NCBI GenBank assembly: GCA_034933205.1
Contig: JAYFNY010000052.1
Coordinates: 1,391-65,390, forward strand
Length of the DNA: 64,000 bases
Direction: 5' to 3'
From: Eubacteriales bacterium
GTDB lineage: Bacteria; Bacillota; Clostridia; Christensenellales; CAG-138
A program made the position numbers and the translations under genes. Positions 1,334-25,995 of the stretch are shown piece after piece; position 1 is the stretch's first letter, and every line of letters starts with the position of its first letter. The notes beneath the pieces were generated by a model. The model had not been told where the DNA came from. It saw nothing but the letters and a program-made list of their open reading frames with translations, and made no database searches.

Positions 1334-3331
<1,998 letters not shown>

Positions 3332-3656: not shown

Positions 3657-4754
3657 CTAAACCTCGATCACGTGGCGGTCCGCCACCTGGTAGACCTGCA
3701 TCTGTTCTACGCCGGCCGCCGCTACCTCTTCCAGATGGGTACAAGTCAAAAACGTCTGGCAGTCCTGTGCGGCAATCAGCAGCATCCGCTGGCGGTTTCG
3801 GTCCAGCTCGGAAAAAACATCATCCAGCAGCAGTACCGGCGCATCGCCTTTCTCCGAACGGAGGATTTCAAGCTGCGCCAGTTTGAGACTTAATACGGTC
3901 GTTCGCTGCTGCCCCTGGGATCCGTAAACGCGGACGTCCGTGCGATTGATGGAAAGCCTCACATCGTCCCGGTGCGGGCCAACCGAGGTGCTCCCGCGAA
4001 ACACATCCCTTTCCGCGCTGTCCGCCAGAGCAAGACGCAGCGTCTTGACCAGATCGCCCGAGGATTCCGGCTCCACATCCGGTTCATACGAAACGGTAAG
4101 CTCCTCCGCCCCGTCGGACAGGGTATCGTGCTGTTCTGCGGCGATCATTCCCAACCGCTCCACAAGTTCTGCGCGCGCCAGAATGATCGAAGCGCCGAGA
4201 ACCGAAAGCTGCTCGTCCCAGCAGGCAAGCGTATCGTAATCCAGCCCGTCGGGATCCTTGAGCAACGCGTTACGCTGTTTCAGCGCATTGTTATACTGCT
4301 GCAGCGTATAGTAATAACTCGGGCGCAATTGGGAAATCGCCATATCGAGAAACCGCCGCCGCTCGCCAGGGCCATCCTTGACGAGGGAAAGATCCTCCGG
4401 AGCGAACATCACAACGTTCAGGCAGCCAAGCAACTCCCCGGAACGCGACAGCGCCGTACCGTCGATAGAGAATTTTTTTCGCTCACCGGAAAACAGTTTG
4501 CACTCGATCCTGCGAGGACCGCCGCGCGTATCCACATCCACTGCGACGCTTGCAAACGCCTCTTTGGAACGCACCATTTCGCCGTCCCGCACCGTGCGGT
4601 GACTGCGCCCCAGAGAACATAAAAAGAGCGCTTCCAGCACGTTCGTCTTGCCCGCGGCGTTTTCTCCCGTCAGTACGCAAAGACCCGCGTCCGGGCGGAG
4701 GGAAAGCGATGGATAATTTCTAAAATTGACGAGCCGAAGGCTGGTTACGCGCAT
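3657..4754 (-). CDS. recF: DNA replication/repair protein RecF
   Basis: 365 aa. N-terminus MRVTSLRLVNFRNY, Walker A GENAAGKTNVLEA, Walker B-like LLLDDVFSELD. Confidence 0.95.
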   Translation of the reverse strand: MRVTSLRLVNFRNYPSLSLRPDAGLCVLTGENAAGKTNVLEALFLCSLGRSHRTVRDGEMVRSKEAFASVAVDVDTRGGPRRIECKLFSGERKKFSIDGTALSRSGELLGCLNVVMFAPEDLSLVKDGPGERRRFLDMAISQLRPSYYYTLQQYNNALKQRNALLKDPDGLDYDTLACWDEQLSVLGASIILARAELVERLGMIAAEQHDTLSDGAEELTVSYEPDVEPESSGDLVKTLRLALADSAERDVFRGSTSVGPHRDDVRLSINRTDVRVYGSQGQQRTTVLSLKLAQLEILRSEKGDAPVLLLDDVFSELDRNRQRMLLIAAQDCQTFLTCTHLEEVAAAGVEQMQVYQVADRHVIEV

Positions 4755-4943
4755 GCGTTCGCTACTCTGTCTTCCCTGTTATTTTGTATAGTATACCATA
4801 AGAATACGTTTCTGTATATATATTATAGAAAAGAAGTGGTACTATCCGCTTATTCTATTGAGATTTTACTCAGTTTTCAAGCACGTTCGCCTGCTTTCGG
4901 CATGTGTCTGCCAGTTCGCGGAAAAATAGTCCCTCCCCATACG

Positions 4944-4975
4944 AAAACCGGACGCAAATTCAAATCTGCGTCCGG
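4944..4975 (-). terminator. Rho-independent terminator after the DUF4956 gene
   Basis: 9-bp stem ccggacgca / tgcgtccgg (4948-4956 and 4967-4975). On the minus strand it is followed by TTTT. Confidence 0.7.
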
Positions 4976-5098
4976 TAAACAAGCACTCTATTTCATTGAT
5001 TTTCTGTCAAACCGCACACGGGCAAACGCGAAGAAAAGCCGCTTTTTCAAGCACCGTCGCTTTGTCAATGGGCTGGCGGAACGGGCTTCGATACTTCC

Positions 5099-5791
5099 TT
5101 ACGAAAGCAGATCGCCCTGATGCGCCACCAAAGTCGCGTCAAATACGCCCGGCACCCGCAGGAACTTATCCACGAAGTCCGTATCGCTTTCGCGTATACG
5201 AATCTCAATGGTCAGCTCGATCCCGTCGTGCTGGACGGTCTTGCTCTTGATGTGCGCTTTGGGCAGCTGACGAATCAGGCCTTTGATCTGCTGGCTTGCG
5301 CGGTCGTCAAAATGCAGGATCAGCAGATAGGGCATAGAACTGTTCCCTTTTGCCGAGGTGATGATGACCATGATCACGCCGATGACCAGCGCACCGATCA
5401 ATCCGACGTCCACAAACCCCGCGCCGAGAGCCAGACCTTCGCCCACCGCCCAGAACATGTAAACCGTATCGATGGGGTCCTTGATCGCGGTGCGGAAACG
5501 CACGATGGACAGCGCGCCGACCATGCCGAGCGACAGCGTAAGGTTGGAACTGATCAGCATGATCACCAGCGCGGAAACCATGGTCAGCAGGATCAGGCTC
5601 AGGTTGAACGAGCGCGAGTAAACGACGCCGGCAAACGTCTTCTTATAGATAAAATAAAGAAAACCGCCGATCGCCAGGGCAATGACCAGCGTCAGGATCA
5701 CCTGAAGCGGGTTGAGCGTGCTGGAAAACAGCTCCTTGATGTTGAACGCGGTCGCGAGTGGATCGGATGCCGCGCGCAGAGTGGTATTCAT
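5099..5791 (-). CDS. DUF4956-like polytopic membrane protein
   Basis: Start moved to MNTTL, which is preceded by AAGGAGG plus 6 nt. Several hydrophobic helices and an SIVRFRTAIKDP motif typical of DUF4956. Last gene of the CotH-VTC cluster. Confidence 0.75.
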   Translation of the reverse strand: MNTTLRAASDPLATAFNIKELFSSTLNPLQVILTLVIALAIGGFLYFIYKKTFAGVVYSRSFNLSLILLTMVSALVIMLISSNLTLSLGMVGALSIVRFRTAIKDPIDTVYMFWAVGEGLALGAGFVDVGLIGALVIGVIMVIITSAKGNSSMPYLLILHFDDRASQQIKGLIRQLPKAHIKSKTVQHDGIELTIEIRIRESDTDFVDKFLRVPGVFDATLVAHQGDLLS

Positions 5792-5871
5792 TTGTTGCCT
5801 CCTTACCATCATCCTGATAGCAAACTGATAACGCGCCCAGCGCGAAGAAATCCAATTATCCCAATCCGGGT

Positions 5872-6585
5872 CTAAAACTCATACTGCCGGCAAAACACAT
5901 ATTTACTTGCGGCGGTACGCTCGGAAGCGCCCAGCGTCAGCAGTTCCTGCACGTACAGAGGCAAGCTCTCGTTGAACTTCACTTCCAGAACCATGCAGTT
6001 GCGCAAATCCCACACAGGGTAGGTTACCACGTTGGGATTGAACAGATCGACGCAACGCATTGCGGTGCGGATATCCTTGTCAAACGTAATGCGAACATCC
6101 TCGGCCGGAAATACATACGGTTCACGCATATAGTCCACCAGTACTTTCGGCTGCAGATGGTTGGAGAGGAAAATACCGTAAAACTGCATGGCGAACGGGC
6201 TTTCGTTCGTTCGAAGGCACGAATACCTTCCCCGTATAATCTGCTCGCACTCTTCGCGGCTGATGGACACGCTGTCCTTCTTGATGAACTGTCCTTCCTT
6301 ATGCTTGCGCTCCAGCTTAATCGCACTGTCCGAGTAATTATAGATACGAATCCGGAACTTGTCCCGCGAGCCAATGCCGCTCGATTTTTCCCACAGTGCC
6401 GAATCAAACGGATCGTCAAAATACAAGCTGCGAATAAAGTATTCCCCACCGTTGATTGAGGCATGATAGTCCTGCTTCAGGCATGCCTTCATTCGGGTGG
6501 CGAGCAGCCGGTGCTCTCCCTCGGAGATGATGTATTTCAGTTCGTGCCGGTATTGCTTGCCGGCAAGCTCTCGATTATTCGCCAT
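5872..6585 (-). CDS. VTC-domain (triphosphate-tunnel, polyphosphate-polymerase-like) protein
   Basis: 237 aa. It begins ...YRHELKYIIS (the ExK tunnel motif), followed by IRSLYFDD and KFRIRIYN, a beta-rich CYTH/VTC-like pattern. The start overlaps the upstream CotH stop by 11 nt. Confidence 0.75.
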   Translation of the reverse strand: MANNRELAGKQYRHELKYIISEGEHRLLATRMKACLKQDYHASINGGEYFIRSLYFDDPFDSALWEKSSGIGSRDKFRIRIYNYSDSAIKLERKHKEGQFIKKDSVSISREECEQIIRGRYSCLRTNESPFAMQFYGIFLSNHLQPKVLVDYMREPYVFPAEDVRITFDKDIRTAMRCVDLFNPNVVTYPVWDLRNCMVLEVKFNESLPLYVQELLTLGASERTAASKYVFCRQYEF

Positions 6586-9500
6586 TTGCCGCCGTATCTT
6601 CCAGTGTTGTTACGCGACCGAAGAGGTTTACCATCTCTGAATCACTGAGGCTGAAGTAGTTCTGGACGTACTTCAACGCGTATTCCTGATAGTGATTCGC
6701 ATAGTCGCGAATGTTATCACAGTGCTGCTGCCAGGATTTATAATTAATATTGTCCCAAAGATCGACGTCGTACTTCATCTCGTCGGCGATATTGCCCTGC
6801 AGGCGATCCACCATAGCGTTGATCTTCTCCGGCGTATAGACTTCGTTGAGCATAATCGCCACTTTTTCGAGGAACATCTGCCGGAACGAAGAGTTGGCTA
6901 GCAACGCACGAATCAGCACCGTCGAGGTGGCTTTGCTGGAGCCGTGTCCTTCGGGATTAAAGTAACGCGAGAAAAAGTCCCTTCGATACCCGCTGGTGTA
7001 CGCATCGCTATTATCGTCGTTGCGGTTCATTGCCCAGCAGAAATCATAGAGTATCCAGCGCCACTTATTGTCCTTTTCCGGACTGCGCCAGTATTTCACG
7101 TTACCGGAGTCCGTATTCCCAATAATGATCTCCGCCGCAACATAGGTTGCGTAATTCTCCGTGTCCATGAGCGAATTGATATGCTCATAGTTCGACGGAT
7201 CGCTCAGATCGTGGCTGCCGGCCCACTCCACCATATCGGTATAGTCCTGCCAGCCGTTGCCCGCTAGAACGCAAAACTGATTTCCGTTGCCATAGAGCAG
7301 GTCAACCGAATCGGGATTGCTCAGGTGGAACCGTTCCGCGACGAAATCCTCCGTAATCCGTTCCATAAAGTCATATACGCCCCAGTATTGCCCGTTGATG
7401 AGTACGACGACCTGTTTATGCGCCTGTACCACCACCGCGCGATCCTCCGGAAGGCCGTTATCCCCTTCTTCAAAGAGCGTGGTCACCAGATTGTCGCGAA
7501 TCCGGCTGTAGGTTGCGTCCTGTGCGCTTGCGCGGAGAATCAGCGATTTGTAGCTCTGGATCGTCCGGTTTTCAAAGAACGGATAGTTGAACATCGAATC
7601 GCCGTAAGCGCCGCGCGCGATAAGCGCGAGACCTTTCTGCTCGTTGTTGCGCGAGAACTGGCCCTGGATCTGAACGATTCCATCTCCGCTGAATACGGAA
7701 ACGCCGCTCGCGTCGATATAATCAAAGTGCACATCCCGTTCCCATTCGCGCCCAAGCGGATCGGGATGGGATTTCGGCTGCGCGTTGAAGTTGGCAAGGT
7801 TCCAGTTCGGATCCTGCATACCGTTGGCAATGCGGGTATCGGTCGGCTGCTGGCCGGAGACTTCCGCAAAATCATTTCCGACAACATAGATGCCGGTCGC
7901 GGAATCCCACAAGTTTGCCGGGTCGGTAACAATGCTGACCACCGGCAACGAGTAGCGGTGGCTTAGCACCGTACTCTCGCCCGTATAGACCACATAGGTC
8001 TGGCTGGCGACGTCGCTGCCCATATAGCCGCTCTTAAACGCACGCACACGCAGAGGCGTGGTCTTCGAGATCGTAATCTGACCGTTATAACGCGCAGAAC
8101 TCTCGGTCGGCACCGTTCCATCCGTCGTATAAGTCGCGGTGCAGCCCTCCGGTACCTCAACGGTAACCTGCTGAGCGCTGTCGAACGTTCCGCCGGAGGT
8201 TACGATCTTTGGCTTGTCCGCGTATCCGGCGAACCCGGAACCGTTAACAGCGTTCGGCGTCGGCGTTTCATAAAAGAGAAGGCTCGTATCCGTTCTGCCA
8301 TAGCTTATGTCCGCATGGCCTTTTGGCACCTGCAGTTTATCCAGAATCGTTCCGTCCGGAGAAAAGAGAAACACCACGCCTCCGGCGGAGGAAATCCCGA
8401 AATTCGTTTCTAGATTATTTTTTTTTTGCGCGTCGGATACATTCTTGCCCGACGCGAGAACCGTTAAATATTCGCCCGCATCCAGCGTGATATCGGGAAA
8501 GACCCATTTGGCGGGATTTTTCGCGTTGTTACTCAGTGCATACCCCGAAAGCGAGATCGGCGAACCCGTCCGATTATGGATTTCAATCCAGTCGTAATAT
8601 CCCCCGTCCGGCTGTTTCAGATAGGATACGTTTGCGTTAAGCACCTCGGAGATGACAACGTCGCCCGTACCGTAAGCCAAGGTCTTCAGAAAGGACTGCA
8701 ATCCTGCGTTATTATTCGTATACCCGGGCGTTGGCTGGGAGCAAACCGTCCATTCGCCCGTGCCATCCGGATTGCGCGCCATGCTGATATCCGTTTGCGC
8801 GCGAGTATAGTCGTATTCATCCAATATGCGTCCCGCGGGCGTAGAGAAAACAACGCTTTCCTGATAAGCTGCAAGACCAAATGGCGCCTCGATCTTATCC
8901 GATCCTTCCGGCGTCTCTCCCCCGGTACAGTAAATCAGAAGCACACCGTTGGCGGGAATACTCGTTCCCTGCGGCAGCGTATACTTGAGCGGCTGCGTTG
9001 CGGAGTCCGAAATTCCGTACCCGCTCAGATCCACGTCCGATCCGGTCGTGTTATAAAGCTCGATCCAGTCGCAATACGCGCCGTCCGGCCCGATCAGGGT
9101 GGAAGCGTTGCTCGCCATAAATTCATTGAGGTATACGCCGATCGATTCGTCTGCAGAAGCGGAAAGCGTTGCAAGATACTGCGCCGCACCGTCGTCCGTA
9201 TTGGGATATCCGGGGCTCGGCAGCATCTCCTTCCAGGTGGAGTCGTCGTCTGCGCTGCGCCCGAGCGAATACCCGCTCGTGACCGGTTTCAGCGAGATGC
9301 TGTCCACCACCTTTCCGGACACCGTAGAGAGAATCACCTCGTCCGAAGCGGAAAGTTTAAAAGGCGTATGCATTTTGCCGCGGGTCGTATCCCCGCTGCA
9401 GAACACAACAAGATACCCGTGCGGTTCCATAACCGATCCTTCGGGAAACGTCCACTTTGCGGCGGAAATCAGCTTGTCCGTCAGTCCGTAGCCGGAAATA

Positions 9501-9742
9501 TCGAGCGATGTGTCCGTATTGTTATAAATCTCCACCCAATCCGGAAAATCGCCCGTTTCGTCGGGAACCGAGCCTTTGTTGCTCGTCATCACTTCGTTGA
9601 TCTCAACCTGCGCAACTTCGTCCCCGGACGAACCCGATCCGCCGTTTTTCAGATAAAGAATGAGTGCGACCGCGCATACGGCAAGCAGGACCACGATCAG
9701 TAGTCTTCGCGCTGCGGCTGCTCTCCTTCTTCGATTTGCCAT
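6575..9742 (-). CDS. Membrane-anchored, extracytoplasmic CotH-family kinase-like protein with three lamin-tail (LTD) repeats and a chitobiase/hexosaminidase C-terminal-like module
   Basis: 1055 aa. N-terminal signal anchor RRRRAAAARRLLIVVLLAVCAVALILYL. Three LTD-like repeats: VEINEVM...DWVEIYNNT...ISGYGLTDK, VYLNEFM...DWIELYNTT...LSGYGISDS and VVISEVL...DWIEIHNRT...LSGYALSNN. The C-terminal half is CotH-like (LILRASAQD..., INGQYWGVYDFMERI). Confidence 0.8.
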   Translation of the reverse strand: MANRRRRAAAARRLLIVVLLAVCAVALILYLKNGGSGSSGDEVAQVEINEVMTSNKGSVPDETGDFPDWVEIYNNTDTSLDISGYGLTDKLISAAKWTFPEGSVMEPHGYLVVFCSGDTTRGKMHTPFKLSASDEVILSTVSGKVVDSISLKPVTSGYSLGRSADDDSTWKEMLPSPGYPNTDDGAAQYLATLSASADESIGVYLNEFMASNASTLIGPDGAYCDWIELYNTTGSDVDLSGYGISDSATQPLKYTLPQGTSIPANGVLLIYCTGGETPEGSDKIEAPFGLAAYQESVVFSTPAGRILDEYDYTRAQTDISMARNPDGTGEWTVCSQPTPGYTNNNAGLQSFLKTLAYGTGDVVISEVLNANVSYLKQPDGGYYDWIEIHNRTGSPISLSGYALSNNAKNPAKWVFPDITLDAGEYLTVLASGKNVSDAQKKNNLETNFGISSAGGVVFLFSPDGTILDKLQVPKGHADISYGRTDTSLLFYETPTPNAVNGSGFAGYADKPKIVTSGGTFDSAQQVTVEVPEGCTATYTTDGTVPTESSARYNGQITISKTTPLRVRAFKSGYMGSDVASQTYVVYTGESTVLSHRYSLPVVSIVTDPANLWDSATGIYVVGNDFAEVSGQQPTDTRIANGMQDPNWNLANFNAQPKSHPDPLGREWERDVHFDYIDASGVSVFSGDGIVQIQGQFSRNNEQKGLALIARGAYGDSMFNYPFFENRTIQSYKSLILRASAQDATYSRIRDNLVTTLFEEGDNGLPEDRAVVVQAHKQVVVLINGQYWGVYDFMERITEDFVAERFHLSNPDSVDLLYGNGNQFCVLAGNGWQDYTDMVEWAGSHDLSDPSNYEHINSLMDTENYATYVAAEIIIGNTDSGNVKYWRSPEKDNKWRWILYDFCWAMNRNDDNSDAYTSGYRRDFFSRYFNPEGHGSSKATSTVLIRALLANSSFRQMFLEKVAIMLNEVYTPEKINAMVDRLQGNIADEMKYDVDLWDNINYKSWQQHCDNIRDYANHYQEYALKYVQNYFSLSDSEMVNLFGRVTTLEDTAANGE

Positions 9743-9793
9743 GAACAGAATACTCCTTTCGCGAAGATGCGGCTGCGCATTTTCGCAACGTCC

Positions 9794-9822
9794 AGTTTAC
9801 CATACGGCTAGGCCCATGCCAA
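9794..9822 (-). promoter_or_regulatory. Putative SigA-type promoter of the CotH-VTC-DUF4956 cluster
   Basis: The minus strand reads TTGGCA-N17-TAAACT with a TGn extended -10. It lies about 50 nt upstream of the CotH start. Confidence 0.45.
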
Positions 9823-9942
9823 TGATACCCCGATATTATTCACAAAATGTCCGAAATAAAACCTTAATCGTACCGCAGGCTCTTTTCCGTATATACAGCG
9901 CCATTCGTTCCGGATACATTCTCGCATTTCCACGCACGATTT

Positions 9943-10395
9943 CTACAGAACGCCCAGCAAAATAACCGCGACAAACACCGCGACAAACAGGAAAACCCCG
10001 CCGAGAATCATAAAAAACCGTGTAAAACCGAGCATCTGACGCGCATCCTCTTCAATATAAACGCGGCCGATGTTCTGCGGATCATAATACACGCCGACGC
10101 TTTGGCCAACGAGCAAATGGGCTGCACCGGAATAACTGGAAACATATTGCATCGGTTTCCCGTCGATCTGGAAACTGAAAACCGCACGCAGCGCGTTGGA
10201 ACCAAATTGGCTTTGCAGCGCGCTTACCGTACCTTCGGCATATGCGGTGCAGAGACTGCGCTTCCGGTTTTGCGCCATCGACACGCCCAGTCCGACAGCG
10301 AGGAAAATAATGCCAAGCAAACCGAACGTACCGGAAAAGATCGCAGTAAATAATTGCGCGAAGCTAATGCTTGTCATTGGAATAATCGCCTGCAT
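9943..10395 (-). CDS. DUF3592-like small membrane protein
   Basis: Start trimmed to MQAIIPMTSISF. Two terminal TM helices flank a beta-rich core (VSALQSQFGSNALRAVFSFQIDGKPMQYVSSYS). It overlaps the rarA 3' end by about 32 nt. Confidence 0.6.
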   Translation of the reverse strand: MQAIIPMTSISFAQLFTAIFSGTFGLLGIIFLAVGLGVSMAQNRKRSLCTAYAEGTVSALQSQFGSNALRAVFSFQIDGKPMQYVSSYSGAAHLLVGQSVGVYYDPQNIGRVYIEEDARQMLGFTRFFMILGGVFLFVAVFVAVILLGVL

Positions 10396-11761
10396 GGTTC
10401 TTCCCCTCTCTGCTACCAGTTTCATCGTTCTCGGTTTTTTCCGAAGATACGCCGTTCCTGAGCTTCTCGCGCCGCTCGTGGTTCTCCCGGATCTTGGCCT
10501 CCTGCCCCTGGTCGGACGGGTGATAATAACGTTTGCCGCGAATCGACAGCGGCATATACTCCTGCCTGACCCAGTGGCCGGGAAAATCATGAGGATACAG
10601 ATACCCTTTTCCGTGCCCTAGTTTTGACGCGCCGGAATAGGAGGTGTCCCGAAGATAAACCGGTACGGGTTCGTCAAAACTTGTTTCCGCATCCGCGGAA
10701 GCCTCGCCGAGCGCAACGACCACGCTGTTGGACTTGGGTGATTCGCAGAGAAAAAGGATCGCCTGCGTCAGGGACAGCCGCGCTTCCGGAAGGCCGATCA
10801 GCTCCAGCGCCTGCGCTGCGGCGACGGCCTGAACCATCGCCTGCGGATTCGCCAGCCCGATATCTTCGCTCGCATGCGCGATGAGCCGGCGCGCAATGAT
10901 GCGCGGATCCACGCCCGCATAAAGAAGCCGCGTAAACCAGGCGAGCGCCGCGTCCGAATCTCCCCCGCGCAGGCTCTTGCAAAAGGCGGAAAGCATGTCG
11001 TAAAAAAGCTGTTCGTCACATTTTACCACCTTTTTCTGGCTGGACTCCGCAGCGATTTCCTTCGTAATATGAATTTCTCCCGTATCGCCCGCCGGAGTGG
11101 TCAAAACCGCAAGCTCCAGCGCGTTCAGCGCGTTTCGGCAGTCCCCGTTTGCAATCGCGGAAAACGTATGCAGCGCCTCGTCGTCCAGACGCACGTTCCG
11201 ATTGCCAAAGCCGCGTTCCCCGTCCCGGAGGGCATGCAGAATCGCTTCCTCCACATCCTCACTGGACAGTGGGTAAAACTGGAACACCCGGCAGCGCGAA
11301 ACGATGGCGCTCGTCATCGAAATCATCGGATTCTCTGTCGTGGATCCGATGAAACGAATGGTCCCCTTCTCGAGCGCAGGCAACAAAGAATCGCTCTGCG
11401 TTTTACTCCAGCGATGGCATTCGTCGAGCAGCAGGTAGGTCGGCTGACGATAGAGTTTGAGCCTCTGCTGCGCTTCTTCAACGATTGCGCGCAGCTCCTT
11501 GACCCCGGCCGTAACGGCGTTGAGTTTTACAAAGGCGCCTCCCGTTGCGTTCGCAACGATCGCGGCGAGCGTCGTTTTCCCCGTCCCGGGTGGACCAAAG
11601 AAAATGGAAGACTGCAGCCGGTCGGTCAAGATGGCCCGCCGAAGCAGCTTCCCTTCGCCAACAATATGTTTCTGGCCGATGAATTCGTCCAGCGTGCGCG
11701 GCCGCATGCGATCCGCAAGCGGGGCATTTTCTTCTATGTTATTTGAGAATAAATCTTCCAT
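10364..11761 (-). CDS. rarA: Replication-associated recombination protein A (MgsA/RarA AAA+ ATPase)
   Basis: Walker A GPPGTGKTTLA, Walker B LLLDECHRW, MgsA C-terminal helix DPRIIARRLIAHASEDIGLANP. Start set at MEDLFSN. Confidence 0.9.
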   Translation of the reverse strand: MEDLFSNNIEENAPLADRMRPRTLDEFIGQKHIVGEGKLLRRAILTDRLQSSIFFGPPGTGKTTLAAIVANATGGAFVKLNAVTAGVKELRAIVEEAQQRLKLYRQPTYLLLDECHRWSKTQSDSLLPALEKGTIRFIGSTTENPMISMTSAIVSRCRVFQFYPLSSEDVEEAILHALRDGERGFGNRNVRLDDEALHTFSAIANGDCRNALNALELAVLTTPAGDTGEIHITKEIAAESSQKKVVKCDEQLFYDMLSAFCKSLRGGDSDAALAWFTRLLYAGVDPRIIARRLIAHASEDIGLANPQAMVQAVAAAQALELIGLPEARLSLTQAILFLCESPKSNSVVVALGEASADAETSFDEPVPVYLRDTSYSGASKLGHGKGYLYPHDFPGHWVRQEYMPLSIRGKRYYHPSDQGQEAKIRENHERREKLRNGVSSEKTENDETGSREGKNHAGDYSNDKH

Positions 11762-11833: not shown

Positions 11834-12913
11834 CTACTCCGCCGGCAATTCCCGTATGGCCAGAATATCGCTGCTGGGACGGCCGTCTTTATACGGGGTA
11901 TTGATCGGCCCGCTCCGGGAAAGCAGAATGCTGGAGCGTCCGCCATCCAGATTGTACGCGCTGACAAACCCGAGCTCTTCGCAAAGCTGGGAAAGCTGCG
12001 CCATAGTAAGCCCTTTGGAAACCTTCGTACGCCCGTCCACCGTTAAAAAGGCATAATGGCCCGGCGCGTAATATCCGAGTACGGACCGTGGGTTGGATGG
12101 CAGCAGGGAGCTGTGAAATTCCGTTTTCGCGTGGCTTTCCTCATCCAGCAGCGACGGACCAAATACCCACGTTTGATAAACGCTCATCCCTGCCAGCATC
12201 TCTTTCGTCAGCACCCGGTATTCATAAATCCGCAGTTCTCCATTTGTCAGCAATACGGCGATATCCCAGTTTCGCGTAATATTTGCGGCATAGGTTACCC
12301 CGTTTCGAATCACCGGACCATATACATGCAGCGAATAAAAATCACCGTTCATGGCAATGATGCCGTCGTTAACCGAGTCGAACATGTCCTGTACCGTAGC
12401 CGTCGATCCTCGAAACTCACCCTGACTGAACGCCGTCACGAAGCAGGAAATGTCCTGTATGTAAATATCCGCAATCGAATAATCGCTGTTCTCCCAGTCT
12501 CCGGACGAAATCGAAACGGAAACATCCTGACTCCGATAATTACCTTTCTGGTCGCTGACAATTCCGGCGTAGCAAAACCGGTCAAACGACTCTTCGTCGC
12601 AAAGTCCGCTGGAAACCCTTTCCCGAAACTTAACCGGATCCGGGATTCCGCCCGCCGCATACAACAGCATCGCACGCGCATCGTTCTGGTCGATCTGCCC
12701 ATTTCCGGTGAAATCGCAATCCGGATTGGAAAACTCGGTGTATTTTCCGGTCGAGCAGCCACGAAGCAAAACCGCCGCGTCGGACGCGCTGAGCGCTCCA
12801 TCCCCGTTTAAATCGCAGAGCGGGCTTTCCTGAGCCGCCACGGCTGGAGCAGCAGCGGAAAGCAGGCAAAGGAACGCAAAAATTGTGAAAAACACCGCAA
12901 CTCTCTTTTTCAT
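11834..12913 (-). CDS. Secreted phosphodiester glycosidase (NAGPA/DUF2233) family protein with N-terminal dockerin-like repeats
   Basis: Signal peptide MKKRVAVFFTIFAFLCLLSAAAPAVAA. Dockerin-like segments DLNGDGALSASDAAVLL and DFTGNGQIDQNDARAMLL. C-terminal NLDGGRSS motif. Confidence 0.7.
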   Translation of the reverse strand: MKKRVAVFFTIFAFLCLLSAAAPAVAAQESPLCDLNGDGALSASDAAVLLRGCSTGKYTEFSNPDCDFTGNGQIDQNDARAMLLYAAGGIPDPVKFRERVSSGLCDEESFDRFCYAGIVSDQKGNYRSQDVSVSISSGDWENSDYSIADIYIQDISCFVTAFSQGEFRGSTATVQDMFDSVNDGIIAMNGDFYSLHVYGPVIRNGVTYAANITRNWDIAVLLTNGELRIYEYRVLTKEMLAGMSVYQTWVFGPSLLDEESHAKTEFHSSLLPSNPRSVLGYYAPGHYAFLTVDGRTKVSKGLTMAQLSQLCEELGFVSAYNLDGGRSSILLSRSGPINTPYKDGRPSSDILAIRELPAE

Positions 12914-12934: not shown

Positions 12935-14026
12935 TTACGACGTTCCGCTCTTGTTCTCGGCAGGTTCGCACAGATATACGATATCGCTGATCGTGCGCCC
13001 TCCGTCCGGATTCGTATTCAGTATCTTCGCCTGCGTCGCCAGAACGGACGAGTTTCCGCCGGAAAGCGAATACGCCTGCCGGCACCCCAGCATGTTCATG
13101 AGCTCCGCCAGCTGCTTCAACGTCGCCCCATTGGATACAGGATTCTGACTGCCGTCTACAACAACGAAGCAGTAATGTCCCGGTTCATAGTAACCAATGG
13201 CGGTCCTTGCGCTGTGGGAAGCAATCAGACGCTCGCCGCTGAAGCTGGAAAGCGGCTCGCCGTCGTCGCTCAGCAACCGGGGTCCGCCCGCCCACGTCTG
13301 ATATATATCGCTTTGTTCGAGCGTCTCGACGGATACGGTTCCCGCCGCGAAAGTCTTCAGTTCTCCGTTTCGATACAATACGCAAAGATCCATGCCGCGA
13401 TCCATCGTATCCCGGTACCATACGCCGTTTCGTACCATCGGGCCAAGTTTCTGGCTGGAATACCCGTCCCCGTTTACAGCAAGAATCGCACTGTTCGAAA
13501 TCGCGATTTGCTGCGTATAATCCTTCTCGCCCAGGTACTCTCCGCCAGAAAAAGCAGTGCGGAAACAGTCGATATGCTGCACATAGATATCCGCAAAGTA
13601 ATAAACATAACCTTCGCGCGTGTCGCTCTGTACGCGGACACTCACATCGCGGCTGACATACCCGTCGTTACGAAGCAGCGTTCCCCGATACGAAAACTGG
13701 TCCATATGCGCTTCGCCCAGCAAACTGTCCGGCGTTAGGATCGACAGCTGGGAAAACGCGTCGATCCTTCCCGTGGCACAAAGCAGAATCGCAACCGCAT
13801 CCGGCGAACTGACCTCCATATTCCCTGTTGCGTCCGCAATTGCGCTTGCCGTCGCATCAAGAGTTACATATCCGCCCGTCGCCCGCAATACGCGCGCCGC
13901 ATCCGCCGCCGCAATCGCACCGTCCCCGTCCAGATCGCCCGTGCTGCGCGCCTCTGCGCCGGCAATGTGAAACGTCATTGCCATCAATGCGCAAAAAAGG
14001 AGGATCAACTGGGTTTTTCGTCTCAT
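12935..14026 (-). CDS. Secreted phosphodiester glycosidase family protein, paralog of 11834..12913
   Basis: Start trimmed to MRRKTQLILLFCALMA (signal peptide). DLDGDGAIAAADAARVL dockerin-like segment. Collinear with the neighbour: FADIYVQHIDCFRTAFSGGEY versus IADIYIQDISCFVTAFSQGEF, and SLSGGNSS versus NLDGGRSS. Confidence 0.7.
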   Translation of the reverse strand: MRRKTQLILLFCALMAMTFHIAGAEARSTGDLDGDGAIAAADAARVLRATGGYVTLDATASAIADATGNMEVSSPDAVAILLCATGRIDAFSQLSILTPDSLLGEAHMDQFSYRGTLLRNDGYVSRDVSVRVQSDTREGYVYYFADIYVQHIDCFRTAFSGGEYLGEKDYTQQIAISNSAILAVNGDGYSSQKLGPMVRNGVWYRDTMDRGMDLCVLYRNGELKTFAAGTVSVETLEQSDIYQTWAGGPRLLSDDGEPLSSFSGERLIASHSARTAIGYYEPGHYCFVVVDGSQNPVSNGATLKQLAELMNMLGCRQAYSLSGGNSSVLATQAKILNTNPDGGRTISDIVYLCEPAENKSGTS

Positions 14027-14272
14027 CGGCGCTTCTATCCTTTCGGGCAAACGGATCGGCCAGGCTTTTTCGCCCGGATCAGCAGCGTTCCTCCCTGCTT
14101 CCCCATACGGGAAAGCGAAGGCAACACTGTTATTCATCATAACACGTTTCAAAAGAATGTGGTAGAATGTTCCTGCGGAGCGGTTTTCCCAAGGCCCCGT
14201 CCGGTTCCCGGACGGCCGGCGACGCTTCGCGACCAACTATTTTCTTGTAACGACCTGAAAGGATGATTCCGT

Positions 14273-15436
14273 ATGAAGATCGGGCAGTTCAGCGACTCCT
14301 TCCTGCCGGTCGTGGACGGCGTGGGCAGAGTCGTGTATCAATACGCGGCAGCGCTGACACGACGGGGAGAGGAATGCTATGTGATCGCCCCAATGGCGGA
14401 CACGGGATACCGCGGAGGATACCCCTTTGAACTTGTAGACTTTATCAGCATGGAATTACCGCGCCAGCGCCAGTACAGCACGGGAATTCCTTCCCTCGAT
14501 ACGCACTACGACGCGCGTATGCGCAATATCCAGCTGGATATTATCCACGCCCATTCGCCTTTCATTGCGGGACTGGAAGCCCAGCGGCTTGCCCGCCGGC
14601 GGGGAATTCCCATCATCGGTATGTTCCATTCGCGCTACTACGATGACTTTTATCAGCTGACCCGCGCAGAAATGCTTGCAAACCTCGCCGTCGCCACCAT
14701 CGTGAATTTCTATCAGCGCTGCGACGAAGTATGGACCGTAAGTCAAAGTTCCGCCGAAACTCTTCGCGATTACGGCTATATCGGAGATATCATCGTAATG
14801 CCAAACGGTACGCCGGACGCGGAGCCCGACGCCGCGCACGCTGCGTTGGCAAAAGCGCATTATCAGCTTCCCGATACGCCGATTTTATTCTATTGCGGGC
14901 AAATGAACTGGAAGAAAAATATTCTGCGCGTTCTCGAAAGTTGCGCCTGCTATCAAAAGGGCGGCAAGCCCTTTACTTTGGTCCTCGCCGGGCAGGGACC
15001 GGACGCAAAGGCGATCCGCAGCAAGGTTGACGAACTCGGATTAAGCAAATGCACCGTTTTTACCGGACACGTAACGGATGAAACCCTGCTCTATGGACTC
15101 TATGAAACGGCGGACCTTTTTGTGTTCCCCTCTCTTTACGATACCTCGGGCATGGTTGTACGTGAAGCGGCCGCAATGGCGACACCGAGCGTCGTCGTTC
15201 GCGGTTGCGCAACCGCCGAACCGATCATAGACCGCGAAAACGGTTTTCTCTGCGAAGATACGACCGAAAGCCTGTGCAAAATCATCGATATGGCGCTTTC
15301 CGACCGGGAAATGACAAAACGCATCGGCCAAGCCGCTCGGCGGACAATATATCTCTCCTGGGACGATATCGCGGCAAGCACGATAGCACGTTACGAAGCA
15401 CTGATCGAGCACTATAAAAGCACGGCCCGCGTCTAG
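14273..15436 (+). CDS. Glycosyltransferase family 4 (GT-B, retaining)
   Basis: 387 aa. N-terminus MKIGQFSDSFLPVVDGVGRVV and the C-terminal GT4 signature FVFPSLYDTSGMVVREAAAMATPSVV. Confidence 0.85.
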   Translation: MKIGQFSDSFLPVVDGVGRVVYQYAAALTRRGEECYVIAPMADTGYRGGYPFELVDFISMELPRQRQYSTGIPSLDTHYDARMRNIQLDIIHAHSPFIAGLEAQRLARRRGIPIIGMFHSRYYDDFYQLTRAEMLANLAVATIVNFYQRCDEVWTVSQSSAETLRDYGYIGDIIVMPNGTPDAEPDAAHAALAKAHYQLPDTPILFYCGQMNWKKNILRVLESCACYQKGGKPFTLVLAGQGPDAKAIRSKVDELGLSKCTVFTGHVTDETLLYGLYETADLFVFPSLYDTSGMVVREAAAMATPSVVVRGCATAEPIIDRENGFLCEDTTESLCKIIDMALSDREMTKRIGQAARRTIYLSWDDIAASTIARYEALIEHYKSTARV

Positions 15437-15756: not shown

Positions 15757-17055
15757 TTACGCCTTCTCCAAATAGGTGTCCGCCCAGGAAAAATTCTTCC
15801 ATTCTCCGCCATGCAGGCGATGCAGTTCCTCCGTGGCAAGCAGCCATTTGGCAACACACTCCGTTTCCGGAAAAAACTCATAAAACTCCCCCTCAAAGAA
15901 GGTATAAATACGCGAAACGTCCGTACACATTCCGTACGTAGGCAAGAGTCCCGGCTCGATATGGAACGTAAAAGGTTCGCCGTTTCTTGTTCCGGCATAG
16001 GTTAACCCGCTGTGATCCAGCCGGATTTCCCCCTCGCCAACGACGAGACTCGTCGCAAGATTTTTCAGTGTTTCAAATTTCGGCAGCATGCCGAGACGTA
16101 CCCGTTCGGTCAGGAAAAACGTACGGTCCAAAATCTCGTGGTACACGTGCCTTCGCTCTTCGTCGAACCACTTCTTCGGCGTTTCCGGCAAAACACAGGT
16201 TTCATCCAGCGGCGCAAAGCTATAATCCGGATTGACCCGCGCACCATTGCCGCAATGCGAACAGGCAATCCGGTCTTCGGCGCTTTGCATCGTGAATTCT
16301 TTGCCGCAGCGGGGACACCGGTAAAGAAGCGTATGCAGCTGGTGGGCAATCCTGCCCCGCCCGTCGTAAGAAACCTTCGCCTGCCGGTTCCATTCATAAT
16401 CGTCATTCTGAATCGCGCAGTCAAGCGCGAGTTGTATCTCTTCCGCGCTCATGCCGGAAAGTTCCTCAGGCGAAAAGAGCTTGTCGATCACAACGTGAAC
16501 CTCCCCCGGCCGCTCGTCGAGGCAATATTTCGTACTCGTTAAATATCCGCCGGAGATCCTGGAAACATAGACCGGAACGCCGAAATGCTTCAGCAATTTT
16601 CCGCTGCCAATGGCGCACGGCTGATTGCCGCCGCCAATGGAACTCATGCCTTCCGGAAACAGGATTACTCTGCCGCCGGAGCGCAGTACACGGGCAATCT
16701 CCTTGATTGTGTAGATATCGGGCGTAAAGTTTTTCTTCGGAATGATCTGCAGAAGCCGGAAAATGAACGCAAGATGCGACCGGAAAAACTCGTTGTAACC
16801 GGCAACGAAGTTCAGCGTTTCCGGCAATAGGACCACGCCGGTATAGATATAGTCCAAGCGGGACGCATGGTTGCTTACGATGATATACGGACCTTTGCAG
16901 TCCCGCGGGTCGTCTTTGATCTCGGCATGCACGCCAAGCTTTCGAAAGTATAGCATCCGCCATAAATATCCAAGCGCGCAGTAGACCAGCTTCGGCGGCT
17001 GTTTGATTCTTCTTGCGTGGAGTTTTTGCGCCAGCGATTTCTTCTGTTTTGTCAT
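15757..17055 (-). CDS. PlsC-family lysophospholipid acyltransferase with an extra C-terminal zinc-ribbon-containing domain
   Basis: HX4D motif SNHASRLDY and FPEGMSS motif in the N-terminal half. CPRCG...CSHCG zinc ribbon in the C-terminal half. Confidence 0.75.
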   Translation of the reverse strand: MTKQKKSLAQKLHARRIKQPPKLVYCALGYLWRMLYFRKLGVHAEIKDDPRDCKGPYIIVSNHASRLDYIYTGVVLLPETLNFVAGYNEFFRSHLAFIFRLLQIIPKKNFTPDIYTIKEIARVLRSGGRVILFPEGMSSIGGGNQPCAIGSGKLLKHFGVPVYVSRISGGYLTSTKYCLDERPGEVHVVIDKLFSPEELSGMSAEEIQLALDCAIQNDDYEWNRQAKVSYDGRGRIAHQLHTLLYRCPRCGKEFTMQSAEDRIACSHCGNGARVNPDYSFAPLDETCVLPETPKKWFDEERRHVYHEILDRTFFLTERVRLGMLPKFETLKNLATSLVVGEGEIRLDHSGLTYAGTRNGEPFTFHIEPGLLPTYGMCTDVSRIYTFFEGEFYEFFPETECVAKWLLATEELHRLHGGEWKNFSWADTYLEKA

Positions 17056-20980: not shown

Positions 20981-22600
20981 TCAAGCAACGCGTTCGCCGG
21001 TGCCCATTTCCGCGTCACCGGCGGTTCCGGCGCTTTTTTCCCGCCGCCGCACCGGCCAAATATGAAGCAAGCCATATGCCGCGACGGGCGCGAACAGCGG
21101 CAGATAACTCAGCGCGTAACGGGACTGCGCTTCAAAAATCAGGTGATACAGAATCCCGCCAAGAACCATAAGCGGCAAAATAAGCTTCGCCTCCGAACGC
21201 CGCCGCAACAGCAGAAGAACGCCTGACAAAAATCCACCGTAAAGAAGGATCAATTCAAAGCGCATATAGACGCTCAGATTCCCGGCAAACGACGTACCCA
21301 GCAGGTACTCTGCCAGCGCATTCTTCGCGCGGGGCATGTCCTGCATTCCTCCGTTCACCGACCAGACCGACTGAAACGTCGGTTCCAGCCACTGGGTTGC
21401 AAATTTCTCGCGATACCAGGCAAACCCTTCACCCGGGTTCGACGCAAAATACGCAAGCTTTTCGCGAATCACCGTTTCGCTGTATGCGGCAACCGCCTCC
21501 ATATCCTCACCGCAGGTTTTCGTGACGTCTTCGACGAACGCGTTGCAATACCAGCCTTTCGTATTATCCGTTTGTTCCATCGACATCGCAATCCAGCTCG
21601 TCATCGGGTATCCTTCGCCAAATGTTGCGCCGGTTTCGGATTCATAGTACCTCTGTGCGAACTGCGGACCGGGTAACGCGAGCGCAACAATGCAGACGAC
21701 GGCCGCAAGCGAGCGCCAGGACGACCTTTTCAGCGCATCCAGCAGAAGCGCAATCCCCGCTGCGATTACGGCAATCCACGCGTTGGGCTTAAGTAATACG
21801 GCGATTGCGAAAAACAGTGCGGCGGGAATCAGTTTACCCCACTTTCTTTTTATTAGATACTCGCATGTGAAATATATCCCCCACACGCAAGCAAAAAGCG
21901 ATGGAATTAAGCTGTAGGCGGCCGCGCAGTACAGAACGGGCGGAACGCAGGCAAAAAGCAGCGCGGTAGAAAGAAGCACCACACGCTCGTCCTCAAACAG
22001 CATACGAGCCAGACGAATCAACCCATCGTATGTCAAAACGAGGAGCAATACGCTCGCGCCCCGCAATGCGCCCAGGAAATGCGCGCTGCCTACGATCGCG
22101 AAAATGGCGTCCAGATATGCAAAGAAACCAAACTGGAACGGGTAACTGACAAAATAGTAGCGATAGGGATTGGCCGGGTCGGTAAAGCTCACGCTTTCCG
22201 GCGCGCCAAGACGCAGGAACTTCAGCGCGTCATACACCATACCCGCATCATGCGTCGGTTCCGCACGAAGCGAAAATACCCAGGCAAAACCAAAGAGCGC
22301 GACGAAGGTCAGCATTGCTCCGCCAAAGATCCGGTTGGCCCGGCGCGTAACCTTGCCATATCCCAGCAGGCGTACCAGCAGAAACAGCCCGGCAAACGCG
22401 GCCAGCGAAACAAGCCCGTTGACGGACAGCAGATCGACCCGCAGCGTACCAAAGTACTGTTCGGGCCGGATTCGCGCCGTATAAAACAGGCTCACAAGAA
22501 AAAGCAGCAGCGCCAGAAGCGCGGCAACCGCCATCGCCAGCAGCGAAAGGAAATCGGCCGCGCGCACATTCCGAGGGCTTGGTTCTTTTCGATCCTTCAT
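20981..22600 (-). CDS. GT-C-fold-like (ArnT/PMT-like) polytopic membrane protein, paralog 1 of 3
   Basis: 539 aa. It shares blocks with the two upstream ORFs (GEGYPMTSWIAMSM; KLILPLMVLGGILYHLIFEAQSRYALSYLPLF). Acidic loop THDAG after an early TM helix. The start overlaps the upstream stop as ATGA and is preceded by GGAGGAAG. Confidence 0.6.
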   Translation of the reverse strand: MKDRKEPSPRNVRAADFLSLLAMAVAALLALLLFLVSLFYTARIRPEQYFGTLRVDLLSVNGLVSLAAFAGLFLLVRLLGYGKVTRRANRIFGGAMLTFVALFGFAWVFSLRAEPTHDAGMVYDALKFLRLGAPESVSFTDPANPYRYYFVSYPFQFGFFAYLDAIFAIVGSAHFLGALRGASVLLLVLTYDGLIRLARMLFEDERVVLLSTALLFACVPPVLYCAAAYSLIPSLFACVWGIYFTCEYLIKRKWGKLIPAALFFAIAVLLKPNAWIAVIAAGIALLLDALKRSSWRSLAAVVCIVALALPGPQFAQRYYESETGATFGEGYPMTSWIAMSMEQTDNTKGWYCNAFVEDVTKTCGEDMEAVAAYSETVIREKLAYFASNPGEGFAWYREKFATQWLEPTFQSVWSVNGGMQDMPRAKNALAEYLLGTSFAGNLSVYMRFELILLYGGFLSGVLLLLRRRSEAKLILPLMVLGGILYHLIFEAQSRYALSYLPLFAPVAAYGLLHIWPVRRREKSAGTAGDAEMGTGERVA

Positions 22601-25808: not shown

Positions 25809-25841
25809 TCGGTAACCTCCGGTTGATTTCCCATCGCTTAA

Positions 25842-25953
25842 CATTCGACGATATCGTTCGATTCGGCTTGAATCTTGTGCGTTTCGGTTCGGAACATCAT
25901 TCGACGATATCGTTCGATTCCGCTTGAATCTTGTGCGTTTCGGTTCGAAACAT
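25842..25953 (-). repeat. Tandem direct duplication, 2 x 56 bp, 54/56 identical
   Basis: Copy 1 (25842-25897) is cattcgacgatatcgttcgattcggcttgaatcttgtgcgtttcggttcggaacat. Copy 2 (25898-25953) is identical except g>c at 25921 and g>a at 25948. Each copy contains the 10-bp palindrome ACGATATCGT (25848-25857 and 25904-25913). Confidence 0.95.
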
Positions 25954-25957
25954 AAAA

Positions 25958-25986
25958 AGTATAACGCTTCGTCCGCAGCGGTTCAA
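25958..25986 (-). promoter_or_regulatory. Near-consensus SigA-type promoter directly upstream of the 56-bp repeats
   Basis: The minus strand reads TTGAAC (25986-25981), N17, TATACT (25963-25958). The first repeat-encoded ATG begins 5 nt after the -10 element. Confidence 0.6.
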
Positions 25987-25995
25987 TCCGGCTCT

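Follow-up and report, generated by a model that had tools for sequence, protein, structure and literature searches.

Where would a kinase-like enzyme that works outside the cell find its phosphoryl donor? Extracytoplasmic CotH kinases are widespread, occurring in Pel loci, in cellulosomes and in the NELoc-2 locus of C. perfringens, and the scarcity of extracellular ATP leaves the question of their donor unsolved. This question is raised by a cluster of three adjacent genes in a 64,000-nucleotide stretch of DNA (hereafter, the window) from a Eubacteriales bacterium of the order Christensenellales (contig JAYFNY010000052.1). The cluster encodes a surface protein with three lamin-tail domains (LTD) and a CotH kinase-like domain, a soluble VTC-domain protein that resembles the eukaryotic polyphosphate (polyP) polymerase Vtc4, and a DUF4956 membrane protein. 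The triad forms a single operon, and its three products are predicted to lie in the cytoplasm, in the membrane and outside the cell; the answer that we tentatively prefer, as a possible rather than a probable one, is that together they relay polyP or phosphoryl groups outward. That the triad both makes polyP and exports it is likewise a tentative proposal, built on sequence comparison. The three genes form one minus-strand unit; together with the parts of the first protein, they are as follows.

6575 to 9742, minus strand: CotH gene, encoding a membrane-anchored surface protein of 1055 amino acids (aa), identified with Pfam
9647 to 9706, minus strand: N-terminal signal anchor, aa 13-32, after six Arg; the sole hydrophobic segment of the protein
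9263 to 9613, minus strand: LTD repeat 1, aa 44-160, identified with Pfam
8783 to 9142, minus strand: LTD repeat 2, aa 201-320, 8e-24 against repeat 1
8309 to 8665, minus strand: LTD repeat 3, aa 360-478, 1e-15 against repeat 1
7994 to 8197, minus strand: CHB_HEX_C_1/Fn3_assoc Ig-like module, aa 516-583, identified with Pfam
6689 to 7675, minus strand: CotH kinase-like domain, aa 690-1018, PF08757, 147.9 bits, 6e-43
5872 to 6585, minus strand: VTC gene, encoding a soluble, Vtc4-like triphosphate-tunnel protein of 237 aa, identified by Pfam, fold, profile and residue map
5099 to 5791, minus strand: DUF4956 gene, encoding a membrane protein of 230 aa, Pfam score 38.7 bits against a cut-off of 30.6

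The VTC, CotH, LTD and DUF4956 assignments had been made in an earlier note on this DNA, and the Pfam search with hidden Markov models (HMMs) upholds all of them. For the VTC protein, the match to PF09359 scores 123.1 bits against a cut-off of 23 (E 1.8e-35) and covers 231 of the 235 model positions. The AlphaFold2 (AF2) model of the protein (pLDDT 85.9) finds Vtc4 as its best match in the PDB (3g3r/3g3q, E 1.4e-12, TM-score 0.69); the top 13 Foldseek matches are all tunnel domains of Vtc4, Vtc2 or Vtc3, and other triphosphate tunnel metalloenzymes (TTMs), namely YgiF, CYTH cyclases and ThTPase, match at 1e-7 or weaker. Neither the single VTC sequence nor a profile of its close homologues found a match in the PDB, and a diverse profile was needed to reach Vtc4: one of 85 homologues, 35-47% identical to the window protein, recovers it at 7e-11.

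The residues tell the same story. In a map made with hmmalign, R13, K17, R78, R80, E92 and K94 of the window protein correspond to R196, K200, R264, R266, E279 and K281 of Vtc4, and K103, Y152, R154, R165, E201 and K203 correspond to K294, Y359, R361, R373, E426 and K428. Each of these 12 residues is kept in 83-85 of the 85 homologues, and K17, R78, R80, K94, Y152, R154 and E201 in 84-85, so that the tunnel Lys, Arg and Glu of Vtc4, named in the earlier note, are not only present in the window protein but essentially invariant. The mapped positions include most of the triphosphate- and Mn-binding residues of Vtc4 that are required for polyP synthesis in vivo (bioRxiv 2023.01.27.525886). Furthermore, S227 and K228 of an SKY motif align to S457 and K458 of Vtc4, through a weak second HMM segment only; K228 is invariant among the homologues, and Vtc2 and Vtc3, which are inactive, have I or L in place of K458 (bioRxiv 2023.01.27.525886). 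K300 of Vtc4 is not conserved in the bacterial family. Hydrophobic segments are absent from the window protein and from all of its homologues (0 of 85), the Pfam scan detected no SPX domain in the protein, and the enzyme is thus predicted to be cytoplasmic.

Many of the VTC homologues carry, in addition, an N-terminal tail of 130-400 aa that brings their total length to 360-620 aa (for example, P0121, P0128, P0142 and P0131). These tails are disordered, basic and rich in K, R, P, Q and E, and contain no Pfam domain, signal peptide or transmembrane (TM) segment; we considered fusions to CotH as an explanation of the extensions and rejected it on account of this low-complexity composition. The tail could be a region that binds polyanions or membranes.

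The first gene of the unit encodes the part that faces outward. Both the three lamin-tail-like repeats and the N-terminal signal anchor that had been noticed in the sequence were found: the Pfam LTD match comprises three stretches (2e-49), with the motif DW[IV]E[IL][YH]N at aa 68, 225 and 384, and the single hydrophobic segment, at aa 13-32 behind six Arg, predicts a type-II signal anchor with the N-terminus in, the C-terminus out and the remaining 1023 residues extracellular. The proposed extracytoplasmic location of the CotH domain is thereby borne out at the level of sequence. The domain is carried by a stalk made up of the three LTD modules and an Ig module of a carbohydrate-binding-like type, whose CHB_HEX_C_1 match covers aa 516-579. 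The ectodomain is strongly acidic, with 70 K+R against 132 D+E. Although phmmer with the whole protein gave no useful match in the PDB, a domain profile, built from 24 diverse CotH domains of triads, proved necessary and finds Bacillus cereus CotH (5jd9) at 6e-19. In this alignment, D878 (in GNTD) and D900 (in YDF) of the window protein fall on D224 and D247 of 5jd9, with the same 23-residue spacing as D228 and D251 of B. subtilis CotH, where the substitutions D228Q and D251A inactivate the kinase (PMC7821199). D878, D900 and N876 are invariant in the 24 domains, and N881 and K703 nearly so. Because the active-site residues are retained even though the domains share as little as 19-59% identity, the domain appears to be an enzyme under selection, and that of the window looks like a working one.

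The relationship to the Bacillus spore-coat Ser/Thr kinase CotH (PDB 5JD9/5JDA) is, accordingly, one of homologous domains in which the equivalents of D228 and D251 are kept. The Bacillus protein, which has no signal sequence, finds its substrates CotB and CotG within the mother cell, a compartment supplied with ATP, whereas the window protein departs from this setting by its N-terminal signal anchor, with the domain outside and joined to modules of the LTD and CHB_HEX_C types. Streptococci, which do not sporulate, have the triad too (PMC12345266). A closer match in architecture comes from Clostridium thermocellum, where LTD-LTD-Fn3-CotH proteins (Cthe_0239; CseP, Cthe_0044) show the same extracellular combination of LTD and CotH within the Clostridia; these are, however, dockerin-borne components of the cellulosome, and no linkage to VTC or DUF4956 is reported for them in PMC6083626.

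The layout of the locus supports its description as one unit. The open reading frames (ORFs) lie where the earlier note had placed its three-gene minus-strand unit, and the signals in and around them are the following.

9794 to 9822, minus strand: candidate for a sigma-70-like promoter, TTGGCA and TAAACT separated by 17 nucleotides (nt) and extended by TG, 52 nt upstream of the CotH ATG
5792 to 5871, minus strand: spacer of 80 nt with the AAGGAGG ribosome-binding site of DUF4956
4947 to 4976, minus strand: intrinsic terminator with a 13-bp stem, a 4-nt loop and a T-rich tail

Each of the three genes has a ribosome-binding site, that of CotH being AAAGGAG. The stop of CotH overlaps the start of VTC by 11 nt, as had been noted, which suggests translational coupling of the two. 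The 80-nt gap between VTC and DUF4956 is correct provided that translation of DUF4956 begins with the ATG at 5791; an alternative start, the first ATG of the ORF (5099-5812), lies at 5812 and would leave a gap of 59 nt. The former is the likelier start because AAGGAGG stands 7 nt upstream of it and the homologues have 230 aa. The terminator hairpin described 3' of DUF4956 is real, its 13-bp stem at 4976 to 4947 being followed by a T-rich tail, and a second terminator-like site, at 9984 to 9965, lies 3' of the gene upstream of the operon; by these two sites, the triad is bounded on both sides. Between the upstream site and the CotH start sits the promoter candidate. The sequence is present as the earlier note gave it, but the match to the consensus is weak (9 of 12 positions) and the region, with 7 promoter-like sites where 4.1 are expected, shows hardly any enrichment; by its position, a promoter here is plausible. 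An Rfam scan of 4600-10700 detected no riboswitch, leader or other element in or around the unit.

Is the co-occurrence of the three families a chance event in one genome? We surveyed the best 80 of at least 596 loci by VTC alignment (14 sequences) in GTDB contigs with one genome per species, and added 10 loci by exact-protein look-up, for a total of 90 including the window; the ORFs were scored with HMMs that were built up in iterations, starting from the proteins of the window. The surveyed loci, designated L001 and so on, are best matches to one query (43-86% identity), mostly from Bacillota and phylogenetically non-independent. DUF4956 is encoded on the same strand within 400 nt of VTC in 87 of the 90 loci, and in the remaining three the contig ends no more than 242 nt past VTC; the two genes are therefore adjacent in all 87 cases that can be evaluated. 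A CotH domain is part of the cluster in 78 of the 90. The genes come in three orders, CotH-VTC-DUF4956, CotH-DUF4956-VTC and VTC-DUF4956-CotH, and the triad is found in at least four unrelated genomic contexts: it is flanked by recF and gyrB in the window and in L001; by gyrA and the gene for the CCA-adding enzyme on one side and PNP and AsnA on the other in L002 and L003; and, elsewhere, by ABC exporters, by an OmpR-type two-component system (C. cellulovorans, Defluviitalea and L089) or by the pel operon. The proposed co-localization of the three families is thus tight, and chance co-location can be rejected. Moreover, of the CotH partners that are complete (65), 59 begin with a hydrophobic segment near the N-terminus, and among the six that do not, several possess a lipobox, such as LLSGC in Collinsella. 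As judged from these features, the conserved design combines a tunnel enzyme in the cytoplasm with a protein in the membrane and a second enzyme beyond it.

The triad as such had been published before. The genes cotH, a polyP polymerase gene, DUF4956 and DUF4832 were reported as accessory genes contiguous with pelDEA(DA)FG (Whitfield et al. 2020, bioRxiv 768473/PMC7112168) in streptococci, clostridia and bifidobacteria (Whitfield et al. 2020, PMC7112168), and NELoc-2 of C. perfringens, besides CotH, has two occurrences of VTC with a small membrane protein (PMC2879425). The statement of the earlier note that no function had been demonstrated for the triad is essentially right, but the genes had already been published as Pel accessory genes. 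The authors of a study on Streptococcus intermedius could not find the CotH/polyP-polymerase/DUF4956 arrangement outside pel loci (PMC12345266). In our survey, about 20 of the 90 loci are linked to pel, typically in the order PelD(epimerase)-PelE-PelA_DA/DUF2194-PelF/DUF3492-PelG, followed by CotH, VTC, DUF4956 and, often, DUF4832, whereas 32 of the 46 well-flanked triads, the window among them, have no pel genes nearby. HMMs made from the pel-linked loci found none of PelD, PelE, PelA_DA, PelG and DUF4832 in the 64-kb window, the sole match being a generic GT4 glycosyltransferase at 14267-15433 (E 4e-5). Because the window and other triads lack pel genes, the published restriction to pel loci is contradicted. 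One locus that the HMM screen had flagged as pel-linked (L024) was rejected as such, its neighbors being a generic GT4 and AsnA.

The window cluster is a distinct, stand-alone and LTD-rich variant of the published triad. With the Pel accessory cluster, it shares a secreted CotH protein, a soluble VTC-domain protein and a protein with a predicted 4-5 TM segments and ACT-like tail, all adjacent and co-directional. However, the CotH of the Pel cluster is a lipoprotein of 550-640 aa without LTD, whereas that of the window is about 1050 aa long, anchored and equipped with three LTDs and CHB_HEX_C; furthermore, the contiguous pel genes and DUF4832 of the former have no counterpart in the 64 kb of the window. 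The window variant is marked by its long CotH protein (about 1000-1130 aa), in which LTD repeats and CHB_HEX_C follow a signal anchor, and is typical of metagenome-assembled genomes (MAGs) of Christensenellales-like Clostridia; the closest relatives are Christensenellaceae/Clostridia MAGs.

Under the mechanism that we propose, the VTC enzyme, driven by ATP at the inner face of the membrane, would produce a phosphoanhydride polymer, polyP. DUF4956 would serve as its membrane partner, and the product, or phosphoryl groups, would be passed outward, where the CotH/LTD protein might use or bind what is exported and so modify an extracellular polymer. In the pel-linked relatives, the target would be the Pel polysaccharide, and in the organism of the window, it could be some wall glycan or protein. 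Alternatively, the LTD modules may bind the exported product instead of CotH consuming it. The comparison with the eukaryotic VTC complex (PDB 3G3Q, 8I6V and 7YTJ), made by sequence and model, reveals a shared tunnel fold and profile, shared triphosphate- and Mn-binding residues along with most of the basic residues of the exit path, and the same obligatory pairing of a cytoplasmic enzyme with a membrane protein. The differences are equally clear: in the triad, there is no SPX, the tunnel domain is not fused to the membrane domain, T198 is replaced by E15 and K300 is unconserved, and the place of the pentameric channel of the 3-TM Vtc1 type is taken by the MgtC-like DUF4956. Because the membrane part belongs to a different family, the triad would be a functional analogue, not a homologue, of the eukaryotic synthase-translocase. 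Bacterial polyP synthesis has been attributed to PPK1 and PPK2. It is, in our view, doubtful, if conceivable, that the triad represents a third bacterial route, in which a soluble tunnel polymerase docked on an MgtC-like protein relays polyP or phosphoryl groups to a surface CotH/LTD protein, as an ATP-independent donor or ligand, for the modification of exopolymers such as Pel.

Several lines of evidence speak against an outward relay, and the nature of DUF4956 is one of them. Hydropathy and a low-confidence model indicate four to five helices within aa 28-150 and a tail of about 75 aa with the order beta-alpha-beta-beta-alpha-beta; the AF2 model is poor (pLDDT 53). The family has the invariant motif G-MVGALSI-RFRT-K-D...FW, of which the Arg/Arg/Lys would, by the positive-inside rule, be situated at the cytoplasmic face. 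Basic rings, made of K and R, are also found in the eukaryotic VTC channel, where it opens to the cytoplasm (bioRxiv 2023.01.27.525886), and the parallel with DUF4956 is by analogy only. Among the matches listed for 36 DUF4956 members (25 of 49 families), there is none to PF02656 (DUF202, the Vtc1-type TM domain), and DUF4956 is, by this comparison, apparently unrelated to the three-helix channel of the Vtc1 type. What these searches returned instead were weak matches to PF02308 (MgtC) in 29 of the 36 members (3.7e-4 at best) and, for the tail, weak NapD-like matches in 10 of the 36; a DUF4956 profile produced only marginal NapD matches in the PDB. The hhalign comparison with E. coli YhiD is collinear over 137 columns that span TM3-5 and the C-terminal domain (probability 64%, E 6.7e-5), and the NCBIfam MgtC/SapB model scores 15.7 bits (E 0.009) against a cut-off of 214. 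DUF4956 is thus a distant relative of MgtC/SapB/YhiD but, being below the family thresholds, not a member. The two are similar in length (about 215-230 aa) and, by prediction, in build, with a hydrophobic half at the N-terminus and a putative ferredoxin/ACT-like domain at the C-terminus; DUF4956 differs in its own RFRT-K-D motif and its obligate VTC neighbor, and no pairing of MgtC with a TTM enzyme is known. Moreover, MgtC is known as a regulator, not as a channel. The S. intermedius orthologue of DUF4956 has been described as an MgtC-type TM domain with an ACT domain (PMC12345266). Hence, of the VTC-like synthase-translocase that the earlier note had envisaged, the domains, the tunnel residues, the linkage and the sequence-based topology stand, whereas the membrane component is MgtC-like and not a Vtc1-type channel.

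This resemblance invites a different interpretation, namely, that the triad includes a cytoplasmic module for phosphate/ATP homeostasis or regulation, in which the MgtC-like DUF4956 with its ACT-like sensor and the turnover of polyP or ATP by VTC tune the output of exopolymer, the CotH protein is co-regulated but separate, and nothing crosses the membrane. The collinearity with YhiD and the likeness of the C-terminal domain to the NapD and ACT-type ferredoxin folds are as expected for such a module, and so are the long, disordered and basic cytoplasmic tails of many VTC homologues. The rise of Pel upon deletion of DUF4956 in S. intermedius also fits. In that study, deletion of DUF4956 (SIR_1592) reduced aggregation and increased Pel, deletion of CotH (SIR_1594) reduced both, and no effect was reported for deletion of VTC (SIR_1593) (mBio 2025, PMC12345266). 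The opposite changes in Pel, combined with the null result for VTC, provide no support for a simple chain from VTC via DUF4956 to CotH. In Salmonella, MgtC represses cellulose production, a parallel to the rise of Pel upon deletion of DUF4956. Furthermore, VTC-DUF4956 pairs without CotH exist: there is no CotH in L043, L047, L059, L065, L053 (Sulfurovum) and the pel-linked L076, and in L032, L054 and L087 an LTD-only surface protein takes its place. Because of these loci, the feeding of a kinase cannot be the whole function, and the VTC-DUF4956 pair emerges as the invariant core with a variable third partner. Nevertheless, a purely regulatory module leaves unexplained why the third partner is nearly always extracytoplasmic and is kept through three gene orders and many contexts, why CotH and VTC overlap by 11 nt, and from where the surface kinase would draw its ATP. 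On balance, we regard this interpretation as rather unlikely.

A second point concerns the chemistry of the tunnel. E15, at the position of T198 in Vtc4, is invariant (85 of 85) and creates the signature RxExK. In TTM hydrolases and cyclases, the acidic patch ExExK provides the catalytic site for a second metal; Vtc4 lacks this patch (Martinez et al., PMC4641920), and E15 restores half of the acidic motif. Besides, AtTTM3 shares the tunnel residues of Vtc4 but is a tripolyphosphatase only (PMC4641920), for which reason the tunnel residues make a polymerase possible without proving it, and we found no report, in the literature searched, of an activity for any bacterial VTC-domain protein or DUF4956. 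One could, accordingly, imagine the VTC protein as a TTM hydrolase or cyclase, with triphosphatase, polyphosphatase or nucleotide-cyclase activity, whose signal DUF4956 would pass on to the CotH/LTD protein, the whole being a trans-membrane regulatory switch; the presence of an OmpR-type two-component system next to some triads would agree with a signaling function. However, two of the three mapped positions of the acidic patch, R13 and K203, are basic as in Vtc4, with only E15 acidic and the position of AtTTM3 E90 outside the map; TTM hydrolases carry Glu at the equivalent of K203 (PMC4641920). Moreover, the polymerase-specific Lys (K228, equivalent to K458) is invariant, and both the fold and the profile searches place Vtc4 far above the YgiF, CyaB-like and ThTPase TTMs. 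A switch of this kind is, in all, quite improbable.

Finally, the idea that the CotH/LTD protein is mainly structural or adhesive, like CseP or the fungal CotH invasins, and that its linkage to VTC-DUF4956 reflects envelope co-regulation could draw on the acidic ectodomain, on the LTD-only partners and on the LTD-LTD-Fn3-CotH and CotH-dockerin proteins that are extracellular cellulosome parts with no known kinase role (PMC6083626), but it is very unlikely given the invariance of the catalytic Asp pair and the other active-site residues across the 24 CotH domains and a conservation of adjacency that far exceeds the need of co-regulation.

The outward relay remains the reading that we tentatively prefer, and further features of the survey loci describe how its components vary. 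The LTD-only proteins mentioned above are encoded upstream of VTC-DUF4956 in Clostridia (L087, 7827-8903; L032, 8365-9441; L054, 2-1018). They are membrane-anchored and have two LTD modules, and the VTC protein in the same three loci has a long, disordered N-terminal extension. In four other loci (L034, L042, L045 and L046), an extra LTD-only gene is located 3' of the triad. To judge by gene content, LTD is thus a fourth component that recurs.

In C. cellulovorans (L085, 6842-8793), Defluviitalea phaphyphila (L086, 6928-8880) and another MAG (L089, 6603-8730), the triad adjoins a two-component system: the genes for an OmpR-family response regulator and a HisKA kinase lie directly upstream of VTC-DUF4956-CotH. 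PhoB/PhoR and PnpS are among the best NCBIfam matches of these systems, but all matches are below the cut-offs, too weak to assign them to PhoPR or another named system or to connect the triad with phosphate sensing. We also observed ORFs antisense to the triad. In the window, these are at 5120-5875 (plus strand, 251 aa) and 8576-9703 (plus strand, 375 aa); in L069 (7538-12640, minus strand), they reach up to 1700 aa, and antisense ORFs cluster across 73 loci. Presumably, they are shadow ORFs of conserved coding sequence.

Regarding the surroundings of the triad in the window, recF (3657-4754) and gyrB (1334-3271) are directly downstream, whereas relatives have the triad beyond the opposite end of gyrB-gyrA. 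The cumulative GC skew declines steadily over the whole window, and no switch of the kind that marks a replication origin or terminus therefore lies within it. Just upstream of the operon, a gene for a small DUF3592 protein (9943-10590, minus strand), adjacent in L001 as well, is separated from CotH by the terminator-like hairpin and is probably unrelated to the triad. Farther upstream, 11834-12913 and 12935-14236 (minus strand) encode paralogous secreted proteins with a weak dockerin match and a NAGPA domain (phosphodiester glycosidase, 'uncovering enzyme'), followed by the divergent GT4 glycosyltransferase (14273-15436) and an acyltransferase (15757-17055). This arrangement is kept, with a third NAGPA gene of 800 aa, in the syntenic L001; we rejected the NAGPA-dockerin genes as a part of the triad since they are retained only in close relatives of the same synteny, such as L001, and absent from the more distant L002 and L003. 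Four consecutive ORFs at 20981-26548 (minus strand) consist of a PMT_2-like (GT39/ArnT-type) membrane glycosyltransferase (20981-22600) and three further ORFs of 549, 547 and 236 aa, which have no Pfam match at E 1e-4; together, they could be an uncharacterized envelope-glycosylation cluster.

With respect to the published record, the present analysis corrects the view that the triad is restricted to pel loci: its stand-alone, LTD-rich form is common in Christensenellales-like Clostridia of the gut and rumen. What the triad would mean for these bacteria depends on which interpretation holds. A regulatory module would amount to a new MgtC-type controller of exopolymer production in Gram-positive bacteria that are poor in cyclic di-GMP, a useful, if less surprising, outcome. 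A working bacterial polymerase of the Vtc4 type would constitute a new enzyme class for polyP synthesis, and a version coupled to export would be a source of extracellular polyP. If the novel route is real, prokaryotes would have independently invented the principle of the coupled synthase-translocase, and the question of the energy source of extracytoplasmic kinases would be answered; the triad offers a concrete candidate solution to the donor problem of extracellular kinases.

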